64,000 nt of DNA, taken from Stegostoma tigrinum (taxonomy: Eukaryota). The stretch lies in NCBI RefSeq assembly GCF_030684315.1, contig NC_081391.1, forward strand, positions 20,606,629 to 20,670,628. Reading direction: 5' to 3'. How positions within the stretch are numbered: position 1 is the stretch's first letter; each line of letters starts with the position of its first letter. Made by a program: the position numbers and the translations under genes. A model generated the notes under the pieces. It had not been told where the DNA came from and made no database searches. It saw nothing but the letters and a program-made list of their open reading frames with translations. This document shows positions 202 to 60,761 of the stretch, one piece after another.

Positions 202-2423
202 ATGTCCTCCCAAGTGTGTCAGAACTACCACAAGGACTGTGAGGATGCTGTTAACAAGCAGATCAACCTGGAGCTCTATTCCTCCTATGTTTACCTCTCC
301 ATGGTGAGCCTGGTGCTGCATTCTGAAATTTATTTGGGCTGTGTTCTGTTACACTTCAATTGATGCCATTTTGTTAGGAATTGGGAGCTGGTTGTTAGTT
401 GTGTCGTTCATGCTTTTAGTGAGGAATGATGTTGAAGTAACTGTTGGTTACTGCACCTGACCTGCATTAAGACCTGATGTACAAAGCCCTTAACTGGGCT
501 CTTGTCTACTCCTGAGCTAGGAAGCCTGGGTTCAAGTTCTGCCTGTTCCTCAAAAACAATACTTTCCGATCCACTCGTTTGGGAGTTTTATCTGGCCCTA
601 ATTCAACTAAGGTCATATAACATAGTGGCAACCAAGTTGAAATTCCTAGACAAACCCATTTAGTCAACAAGTAACTGGTGAAATGTTGGGGATTCCCATG
701 GGCTTGTTAAATCTGTTTGAAAGTTGCTCCTTTTATGTCTATTTACATAGAATGTGCTTCACTTCCCCCAAAGAGCTTTAATGCACCAAGCTGCTTTCTA
801 AATCCCCCAAACCCAGTGAGATCCTGTGCCTGAGCTGTTCAGCAGCCTCTTGCACTGACTTTAAAGTTCCTGGCCACATTTTAATGGTTGAGCAAAGTAT
901 TAAATCTGCAGGCTAATGGGCAGATGGTCCTCATCTTATAATAGTTTCAGTTATCTGAATACACAGATTTAAGCTGCTATCTTGACCTGAATGAGATTCA
1001 GAAATTGTAGAAGTGAAATTGAACCATCCCTATCTTTTGGCTGCTTTTTGTCTATATACCTGGAGGAAGTTTCAGATTTCTTTCTGTTTTCTGGTTCTTA
1101 TTGATTTTAAAGAACAGTCTCTAACAAGCAAAAAAAATCCAAATCTAATTATTAAATAAACATGCTGTCATTGGTTTTTCTCCTTTCCAATAGTTCTCTC
1201 ATTTTGACCGGGATGATGTTGCCCTGCGTAACTTTGCTGAGTTCTTCAAGGAGCAGTCCCATGAGGAACGGGAACACGCTGAGAAACTGATGGCATTCCA
1301 GAATAAACGTGGAGGTCGTGTCCTCCTGCAGGACATCAAGGTTGGTGTATCCTCCTACATTGTAATGACCTGAACTAGATATGGATTTGAAGCTTGAATT
1401 CTGCTGGGGTAATGTTAAATGGCCCACACTATTCCTAGATACCTTTTTTCAATCTCATTGCTTTGCACTCCCCCTTCATTTTTCACTGAAACATCTGTCT
1501 CTTCCCTCCCTCCAGAAGCCAGAGCAGGATGAGTGGGGCAATGGTTTGGAGGCAGTGCAGAGAGCTCTGCAGATGGAGAAGGATGTGAACCAGAGTCTGC
1601 TGGATCTGCACAAACTCTCCTCTGATTGCGTGGACCCTCATGTGAGTCAAAAATGCTTAGCTGTGGTCTGAAGTCAGACAGACAGCACAGAAATGGACCC
1701 TTCAGTACATGCTGCATGTAAGCCCAAACTAAGCTAGTCCCACCTGCCTGTACCTGGCCCACTTCACTACCAACTGCCCCTATTCATTGTAGTTTTACAA
1801 TGTATAAAACGACTTGGTTGCTGTTCCTTCCACATGCAAACCACTCATCAAAAAGATGCTTATGTCCTTTATTTCTGGCTCCTTAAATTGCCACCTAATC
1901 CTAGAGAAAAGACACTTGCCATTTAACCCTATCTATACTCATGATCTTGTGACCCCTCAACCACCTATGCTCCAGTTGGAAAAACGTTCCAGCCTTTCTT
2001 AACTCCACCTTCCTTCTATACCAGACAACATCCCAGTAAATCTCTCCTGAGCCCCCTGCAGCTCACTGTCTCTCTGGGTGACTGGAACTGCACACAGTAT
2101 TACAAAAGGTGATTCACCAGTGCTTTGTCTTCCATCAACACCACATTATTTTCTCATTGGTTTTTCTCTCTCTATTAAACCATCTCGATACCACTAAATC
2201 TCCATTTCCAAAGGATGCGAATCTCCAAATGTTTCGGGAGAAATTCACTTGTATTTTTTTATTCTAGCTGTGTGACTTCCTGGAGAGGCACTACTTGGAT
2301 GAGCAAGTGAAGATGGTCAAGAAGCTGGGAGATCACATCACCAACCTGAAGAGACTGGGAGCCCCTGACAATGGCATGGGAGAGTACCTGTTTGACAGGC
2401 TCACCCTGGGGGAGAGTGACTGA
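202..2423 (+). CDS. Ferritin copy 1 (heavy chain B-like / middle subunit), 176 aa, 4 exons
   Basis: Exons 202-303, 1194-1340, 1516-1641, 2268-2423 with GT-AG phase-0 introns. Translates [34 protein letters not shown] / [31 protein letters not shown]...QDIK / [13 protein letters not shown]...DPH / [57 protein letters not shown] at 2543-2548. Confidence 0.95.
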
Positions 2424-3595
2424 ACTGACTGCAGGGAGCAAGCTGCTTGTGTTTATTACTGTGAAATGTGTAACTGAGGTATAGGGAGTGTGGTTTGTGA
2501 TGTGCATCGTGTGACACCTGGTTCTATTGTCAAATGTGCAATAATAAATCTGCTCCATATTAGACTGGATTCTTTCTTTCTTTCTCTGGGTGGTCTCCAT
2601 TTATTGCTTTCCAATCTGGACTGCTGACTTGCCAGAATGCTTTGCCGAGTGATCGATGCTGTGTAGTTAATCTGAAGCCTGTAACGTGCAATGATGGCCA
2701 ACATAAGAAGATGGTGTAACTGCCTGGTTTGTGCCCCTTAGCAAGTGTTGTTACTAATCCCCTCCCTACACAGTACGCTGACCTTAATCCTCCTTGGCCA
2801 GATGCTGCTGATCTTGGATGGCAGTCCTCGATTGGGACGGACCCAGCAAGGAAGAGCCCTGTTGCCACGAGTGACTAATTTCTCTCGGGTGGGGAATGTG
2901 TGGGGTTTTTTTTATATTTTAAAACTCTCCTCAAACACAAACTAACTCCTTTTATGAACTGGCTGGAGCCATTTTTGGATGTAGAGATGTGTTCGTGTTC
3001 CCCCTACCTCTGGGTGCTGCTCTTAGCTTCTCCCTGGGGCTGTCTTGCCCCTTGCCTTGTGTGGGGCTTGGTTCTGTTCTGTTCTGTTCTGATATTCTGC
3101 CCCACTATGAATCCTCTCAAAAGGGGGCAGTAGTTGCAGGAAATCATCCATTTCAGCAAAGCCTTCAGAGTATCGAAAAGGGGGGGGGGGTGGGGTGTTT
3201 GTTTTTCCTGGTCTACACAAGTTAACTTTTTTGTTTAAACCCACAGTCATGTTCCATTGACACTGAAACACAAACTAAGAAGCACCTTCATCAAAAAAAA
3301 CCCTCGAGTCTGTTGCATCCGTATGCTCAAACGGAATTGTTCTGGCAATACTATTAGGTGGCTGTGGGTCATCTTGATTTGCAATTTCAACAGCAAGCTT
3401 CAATCAGCTGATCTTTAGATGTAGGAGTTTAGTCAAGATACTGCAAATGCATAGTGTTGCAGTCCTCTCACCGAGGCATATAAATATTTTTGGAGGTGCT
3501 AAAAGCAAAGTCCTCATGCCTAAAGGACAATTCTCCTCACAAGTGGACAGTTTTCCATTTTCCATTTTCCACTTCCTCGTCGAAAGGGACAATTG

Positions 3596-60499: not shown

Positions 60500-60605
60500 T
60501 TTATTGTACAACAATCTGTATGCATCACATCAATCCTTTATTGCCCTTTCCCAGAAGGGGGGAAATGTCTGTAAGTATATCTTAAATTCACTTACCCACT
60601 TCCAG

Positions 60606-60761
60606 CTGTGTGACTTCCTGGAGAGACACTACTTGGATGAGCAAGTGAAGATGATCAAGAAGCTGGGAGATCACATCACCAACCTGAAGAGACTGGGAGC
60701 CCCTGACAATGGCATGGGAGAGTACCTGTTTGACAGGCTCACCCTGGGGGAGAGTGACTGA
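60606..60761 (+). pseudogene. Orphan ferritin exon 4 (copy 9 remnant or alternative last exon)
   Basis: Intact [10 protein letters not shown]...LTLGESD* with acceptor ttccag (60600-60605) and AATAAA 60863-60868. No exons 1-3 were seen between 56527 and 60605. Confidence 0.85.

Follow-up and report, generated by a model that had tools for sequence, protein, structure and literature searches.

An ancient, ovary-specific ferritin cluster has been described in the Greenland shark (10.1101/2024.09.09.611499), and gene conversion limited to coding sequence has been described in other families. For the mammalian KRTAP1 genes, short-tract conversion combined with selection was proposed, and reverse transcription was rejected on the evidence of the untranslated regions (UTRs) (10.1101/282418). 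In protocadherin exons, a 3'-biased pattern is found under ordinary conversion (PMC1852091). Taken singly, both the ferritin cluster of the shark ovary and the restriction of conversion to coding sequence are already in print. Here, we analyse a 64,000 nt stretch of the 3.2 Gb Stegostoma tigrinum genome (contig C50, positions 20,606,629-20,670,628), referred to throughout as the window. On its plus strand it contains eight ferritin genes of four exons each (102/147/126/156 nt) and an orphan exon 4; the window forms part of a ferritin array of ~1.6 Mb. We consider it probable that the exons of this array are kept alike by repeated ectopic conversion, with genomic copies serving as repair templates and tracts stopping at the splice borders.

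Exon similarity is uncoupled from intron ancestry

Across the 28 pairs formed by the eight window genes (copies 1-8, Table 1), identity was 95.4% in exon 1 (92.2-98.0), 91.2% in exon 2, 94.8% in exon 3 (88.9-97.6) and 97.2% in the first 135 nt of exon 4. Mean synonymous divergence (dS) was 0.114 (0.076-0.146) and mean non-synonymous divergence (dN) 0.042, giving a dN/dS of ~0.37. The original prediction that exons 1, 3 and 4 are nearly base-for-base identical in all copies was therefore right about the high identity (94.8-97.2%) but overstated, as approximately one silent site in ten differs: the silent sites are strongly, yet incompletely, homogenised. The global identities of introns 1, 2 and 3 in the same pairs (0.64, 0.66 and 0.66) lay near those of shuffled controls (0.63, 0.60 and 0.64). 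Identity reached background within ~5-15 nt of the splice sites (the prediction had been a few bases), and the measured intron 1 lengths of 855-2299 nt agreed with the predicted 0.85-2.3 kb. That the introns are mostly unalignable also held, except that copies 1 and 8 match at 87-89% in intron 2; a second exception to the divergence outside exons is a 3' tract of copies 1 and 2 (90%), and a third is the 260 nt upstream of the ATG, ~75% alike across the eight copies.

The sample comprised 564 kb around the window and two end loci, yielding 92 exon groups, of which 67 were complete; two additional 100-kb stretches of the array gave 36 exon groups. Most statistics below refer to 61 copies, after removal of the incomplete groups and of six old pseudogenes that have escaped homogenisation and lie 10-15% off the majority sequence. 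At least 35 intron lineages were distinguished, most too old to align. Among the 61 copies, dS was 0.035 at an intron distance below 0.03 (12 pairs), 0.080 at 0.058 (8 pairs), 0.064 at 0.12 (4 pairs) and 0.121 at 0.29 (4 pairs). In the 1584 pairs with unalignable introns, dS was 0.115 and dN 0.043. Beyond ~6% intron divergence, dS is thus flat near 0.115 while the introns diverge further, which is the disparity that the original prediction anticipated. These values are not the high dS and low dN that birth-and-death evolution would give in old paralogues, although pseudogenes and block duplications do occur. Rather, silent sites are far more alike than the non-coding DNA linked to them, ancestry is mosaic along the gene and sister relations are lost, as concerted evolution by interlocus gene conversion would give.

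The window lies within the left arm of a large inverted duplication (C50 ~20,464,000-20,927,000, centre near 20.697 Mb), whose inner arms are 97-99% and outer arms 85-97% alike. In a 109 kb alignment of the arms, the exons differed at 110/7088 positions (1.55%), compared with 1.30% for introns and 1.06% for intergenic DNA. Eleven mirror pairs of genes showed 32 non-CpG silent differences versus 13.9 expected from their own non-coding DNA (2.3-fold, P=2e-5), an expectation that accounts for transition bias and CpG, whilst non-silent differences were as expected (37 versus 36.3). According to the nearest-neighbour and family tables used for exon and intron ancestry, the sister was the nearest exon neighbour in 11/11 young pairs and in 4/10 older pairs.

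The introns themselves are mosaic. In seven pairs of genes, an entire intron is ≥85% identical although neither neighbouring segment can be aligned, and the clearest of these swaps involve mirror sisters. Between the copies at ~20,480,400 and ~20,906,200, the upstream, intron 1 and downstream sequences are 98-100% identical, whereas the latter has an intron 2 that matches an unrelated copy at 91%. In a further copy, introns 2 and 3 belong to a different lineage, and in yet another this applies to intron 3. The swaps postdate duplications that are only 2-7% old. We conclude that exon similarity is uncoupled from intron ancestry and that introns and 3' flanks are mosaic between copies. The predicted exon-limited ectopic gene conversion is upheld by the dS plateau, the silent excess in mirror pairs, the loss of sister relations and the intron mosaics.

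The mechanism that we propose begins with protein-level selection, which would keep the exons similar enough to pair while the introns drift past the pairing threshold. One genomic copy would then template the repair of another, mostly in single-exon tracts. The tracts likely end at splice borders because the old introns retain no homology, and a few would bridge two exons and bring the donor's intron along. Silent sites and dead copies would be dragged along, the dead copies hitching until they become too diverged, like the six old pseudogenes and a ~75%-identical ferritin gene at the right end of the array. The donors are likely unequal, with an effective number of ~1-3 in simple models, plausibly because eleven-odd gene types have been multiplied in 33-kb and 44-kb blocks at the array ends.

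Template and donors of the probable conversion

The original prediction suggested cDNA of an abundant germline mRNA as a possible template. This is not favoured by our results: the seven intron-sharing pairs stand against 0/306 intron losses (225 + 81 introns examined, the shortest being 96 nt), and shared 3' tracts run past the cleavage site. By hand calculation, cDNA accounts for at most about 35% of intron-spanning events (95%), provided that both outcomes survive equally. Four junction searches, with the 40 best-scored candidates examined in each, gave no exon-exon junction on the contig of the array. Judged from retrocopy ends, cleavage occurs ~11-13 nt after the polyadenylation hexamer, whereas copies with unrelated intron 3 share 3' tracts extending 30-80 nt or more past it, in one case 564 nt; one such tract is 93.5% identical over 185 nt with the hexamer at 103. 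Neither these tracts nor the shared whole introns are confined to the bounds of the mature mRNA. The original prediction had also pointed to local reverse transcriptase (RT)-encoding elements. The RT ORF is real (RVT_1 E 6.5e-36), but LINE-type RT acts in trans, so that an RT gene close by lends the idea no support.

Seven processed copies lie off the array (one each on C17, C43 and C23, two each on C11 and C2) and show low-frequency reverse transcription of ferritin mRNA in the germline. Six of them, which would be ideal substrates for cDNA, have decayed evenly (5-15%) with no clean patch. The C17 copy differs from its closest match in the assembly at 0/156 positions in exon 4, 5/51 in exon 3 and 9/116 in the 3' UTR (P=8e-4 and 4e-4). 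As its clean stretch begins at the exon junction, the C17 copy appears, from its sequence, to have been overwritten up to that junction, as an intron-bearing donor would do. A retrocopy test of drift in the majority sequence gave dS/dN of 1.27 for all six copies and 1.54 for the three oldest (P=0.04 for a static and 0.12 for a fully drifting majority), of which two may share an ancestor. Taken together, the intron swaps, the 3' tracts and the processed copies without a clean patch indicate that the template was likely genomic rather than reverse-transcribed mRNA.

It should be noted that a number of observations weigh against genomic templates or limit the evidence for conversion from them. 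The number of silent alleles per weighted site falls from exon 1 to exon 4 (22/18.7, 26/27.2, 10/21.6 and 7/28.9, i.e. 1.17, 0.96, 0.46 and 0.24; P=2e-4), the pattern that 3'-biased cDNA would give; at non-silent sites the same fall had P=0.06. Exon distance is uncorrelated with the physical separation of the copies (rho ~0), those 0.6-0.9 Mb apart being equally close. A four-gamete distance test was not significant (P=0.82), whilst r2 decay was significant (P=0.002) with a small effect. In favour of conversion, both alleles were found in at least two other copies for 62 of the 101 non-CpG mirror exon differences, against 30% expected; this null, however, ignores site-specific tolerance. The direction of the intron swaps is inferred from sister pairs, and the C17 case is a single event.

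The donor models add to these difficulties. Among the 35 intron lineages, the non-CpG four-fold spectrum is star-like with an excess of singletons (pi 0.065, theta 0.153). The observed values set against the simulations were a pi/theta of 0.42 and a mirror ratio of 2.3. In simple equilibrium simulations without explicit selection, DNA conversion from random donors failed (pi/theta ~1, mirror ratio 5.7-12.8) and ten equal donors fitted poorly (0.70 and 4.4), whereas one to three donors gave 0.33-0.49 and 2.1-3.8. With mismatch-dependent pairing, none of eight settings gave all three values. The donor bias is, within these models, not fully explained, and the poor fit of random donors matters whichever template applies. 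No exact master copy was found in the amplified end blocks, where the median distance was 2.3% among 24 complete copies from the 200 kb sampled. The modelled conversion rate, ~20-60 conversions per mutation per site, is rough and model-dependent.

The rival reading to which these points lend most weight is that most exon-limited events were templated by cDNA or RNA of a few very abundant germline transcripts, with DNA-templated events a minority. In addition to the 5'-to-3' gradient, the star-like spectrum with its few-donor fit, the lack of decay with distance and the existence of the processed copies, expression is high: in run X5, which bears the same organism label and for which the run kind and tissue are not on record, 36,419 of 714,730 contigs fall on copy 1, with GT..AG spliced joints. 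The Greenland shark cluster is, moreover, ovary-specific (10.1101/2024.09.09.611499). The absence of intron losses, the 3' tracts past the cleavage site, the even decay of six processed copies and the exon-junction end of the C17 patch leave this reading unlikely. We hold a further version, in which exons array-wide, and even off the chromosome, are reset from a few dominant oocyte ferritin transcripts serving as a diffusible master template, either as RNA or as 5'-truncated cDNA, to be just as doubtful. Such a template would account for the 3' gradient, the star-like spectrum and the absence of distance decay, leaving DNA-to-DNA events to supply intron swaps alone; if true, heritable correction of DNA from RNA would occur naturally, and on a large scale, in a vertebrate.

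A single past burst or sweep of conversion, followed by mutation alone, would account for the singleton excess and for the finding that two retrocopies and the array copies are both ~6% from the majority at silent sites. We regard it as very unlikely, given the 2.3-fold silent excess in young mirror pairs, an almost five-fold difference in depth among exons, the exon 4 sequences of the orphan and C17 at 0-1 differences, and intron swaps younger than duplications only 2-7% old.

Still less probable is purifying selection on the nucleotide sequence itself (RNA structure, small-RNA sites or codon use) acting with birth-and-death and no conversion. In its favour, third-position GC content (GC3) is 67% in copy 1, and in exons 1, 3 and 4 the contigs of other species (organisms B and D) are just 2-4 letters per 111-156 nt away from copy 1. 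Exon 2 of organism D has 10 differences from copy 1 in 143 nt. Several of the B and D differences are private to copy 1; a few high-share differences occur in B and D and almost none in C, and in none of these contig sets was unique intron sequence of copy 1 covered at ≥80%. The contigs of these organisms may leave room for some nucleotide-level constraint. On the other side, broken copies make up about half of those scored (39 versus 38 intact), so that selection per copy is weak; dN/dS is ~0.37; and dead copies and an off-array processed copy have been homogenised. By a crude classification, broken copies lie at a median of 3.0% from the column majority (n=39) and intact copies at 2.4% (n=38), the six old escaped copies being left out. 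Selection of this kind can neither push silent divergence above neutral nor move introns. Also in favour of conversion, codons are fixed by position rather than by amino acid (median 98%), different codons of one amino acid each being near-invariant, and the fixed codons end in A/T as well as in G/C. GC-biased conversion as the sole cause was also rejected, as A/T-majority four-fold sites are as uniform as G/C-majority sites (pi 0.063 versus 0.079). Nucleotide-level selection may nevertheless act alongside conversion.

Least credible of all is an artefact of assembly or polishing in which mis-mapped short reads overwrote exons: exon similarity was read from the assembled sequence, and the inner inverted arms could be two joined haplotypes, but young mirror copies retain shared copy-specific exon alleles, four runs (possibly from the source sample, and so not independent) contain 73-77% of the sampled words of window positions 1-3000, independent runs of other organisms carry the same near-identical exons, and the exon excess would require conversion even if the arms were alleles.

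Gene products and layout of the array

The array encodes a 176-aa vertebrate ferritin of the M/H type, closest in sequence to middle subunits. The Pfam model Ferritin (PF00210) matched exon 2 above the cut-off (43.5 versus 24.5 bits) and exon 3 below it, with no match for exons 1 and 4 alone, and the best PDB matches of the copy 1 product were 176-aa ferritin middle subunits (E 1e-21). Intact window translations retain E24, Y31, E58, E59, H62, E104 and Q138, which we take to be the ferroxidase ligands. A TATA-like box lies ~70 nt before the ATG of the array genes (window positions 120-201 and equivalents), and the 5' UTR is therefore likely to be short. Canonical ferritin mRNAs typically carry a 5' iron-responsive element. 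No Rfam family, this element included, matched the window at the gathering score, and a loose loop motif was present in just 6/61 upstream regions, suggesting that the array genes are likely free of translational iron regulation.

The intron 2 donor is mostly GTTGG (window positions 1341-1346 and equivalents), a non-consensus sequence kept in most copies. In run X5, exon 1-exon 3 joints over window positions 1-2700 were nearly as deep as exon 1-exon 2 joints, which suggests that skipping of exon 2 is common in some copies.

Table 1. Coordinates of the ferritin copies and other features of the window
Feature	Window position	Strand	Details
Ferritin copy 1, open frame of 176 aa	202..2423; exons 202-303, 1194-1340, 1516-1641, 2268-2423	+	Pfam, PDB match; spliced joints at introns 1 and 2
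Intron 2 of copy 1	1341..1515	+	87-89% identical to copy 8 intron 2; introns 1 and 3 of this pair unalignable
3' tract common to copies 1 and 2	2424..2577 vs 13458-13610	+	154 nt, 90%; ends ~30 nt past AATAAA
RT-domain ORF, 650 aa	3680..5629	-	Likely LINE-type fragment, bystander; RVT_1 E 6.5e-36
Ferritin copy 2, intact	11124..13457; exons 11124-11225, 12159-12305, 12493-12618, 13302-13457	+	
Ferritin copy 3, pseudogene	17612..19968	+	AT donor of intron 1, TAG at codon 90, damaged acceptor 3
Ferritin copy 4, intact	26027..27726	+	Intron 2 is 96 nt, shortest of 306 examined
Ferritin copy 5, intact	29766..32285	+	
Ferritin copy 6, pseudogene	36741..38989	+	TGA at codon 76 (CpG site), damaged acceptor 1
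Ferritin copy 7, intact	47581..50914	+	Intron 1 is 2299 nt
Ferritin copy 8, open frame	54165..56531; intron 2 55712-55886	+	Shorter, different end past exon 4 position 140
Orphan exon 4	60606..60761	+	1/132 core sites off column majority; mirror copy 0/132

The lesions of the copy 3 pseudogene are also present in its mirror copy, and 6/465 of its core sites are off the column majority. Its intron 1 contains a 47-nt tandem repeat of 7.7 copies (window positions 18465-18827), the mirror intron being 188 nt (four units) shorter. The mirror of copy 6 is without the TGA stop. Two candidate signs of conversion among broken copies were dropped: the codon 76 stop seen in many copies lies at a CpG site, and a deletion of 14 nt in exon 3, seen in five copies whose introns differ, is flanked by two direct repeats of 7 nt, so that recurrent slippage explains it. 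A 457-codon ORF (window positions 59388-60758) that ends in the orphan exon 4 has no Pfam match and is probably incidental; five other long ORFs of the window likewise gave no Pfam matches.

Matches to exon 4 extend over ~19.95-21.56 Mb of C50 and continue onto C216, where further array copies are found; as 150 of the 471 candidates were scored, they set a lower bound on the copy number. The 234-261 candidates in exon-junction searches suggest a total of roughly 250 copies. The array ends are recent tandem amplifications, the repeated unit being 33 kb with five genes at the right end and 44 kb at the left end (L069-L078, L079-L088), and these blocks, in which about eleven gene types have been multiplied, carry mosaic intron combinations. 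An old dead subfamily, 12-15% from the majority and with the start of exon 3 replaced, is still carried in the amplified blocks (L002-L006 genes 2, 7, 11 and 13; L079-L088). Adjoining the right end of the array is a four-exon ferritin gene on the minus strand with long introns (L063:1732 to L064:1335), 75-80% identical to the array. This gene has escaped homogenisation and is possibly an ordinary somatic gene.

Significance and comparison with known systems

The array is notable for its scale, its exon-by-exon resolution and its built-in clocks. Conversion can be seen at the scale of single exons of 100-156 nt among at least 35 intron lineages, and mirror duplications 1-10% old, together with dated retrocopies, make conversion rate, tract ends and template type measurable in a vertebrate germline. 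As a practical consequence, expansions of shark ferritin will be misread from trees of coding sequence, from dS dates and from dN/dS, because the copies seem young and species-specific while their introns are old.

The ferritin clusters of the Greenland and great white sharks likely represent the same type of locus as this array; the available portion of the paper describing them gives copy numbers and expression, with nothing on exon versus intron divergence or conversion (10.1101/2024.09.09.611499). Our literature search, with subscription papers and preprint supplements outside its reach, found no report of conversion in a shark ferritin array. Mammalian KRTAP1 resembles the array in that coding sequence evolves in concert while the flanks radiate, with a sharp border between them. 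However, KRTAP1 comprises four single-exon copies, whereas the array has hundreds of four-exon copies in which each exon of 100-156 nt is homogenised separately, and, unlike KRTAP1, it has swapped introns, numerous dead copies and, off the array, a converted retrocopy (10.1101/282418). The variable exons of fugu protocadherins likewise show regional homogenisation of paralogues down to silent sites, stronger towards the 3' end and with raised GC3, but these are large single exons with diverse 5' halves, whereas in the array the whole protein is homogenised across introns (PMC1852091).

The major sperm protein clusters of nematodes are another case of an abundant gamete protein encoded by many copies, with silent identity attributed to conversion. 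There, identity follows proximity and the clusters are young and lineage-specific, whereas the array shows no distance decay and has old intron lineages (PMC5765362). Long-term interlocus conversion between neighbours, as in the array, is also known for BMP8A/B, DDX19A/B and TUBG1/2 (PMC2720389) and for primate opsins (PMC3924837); in those genes, the introns are converted with the exons or more than them, the reverse of what we find in the ferritin array.

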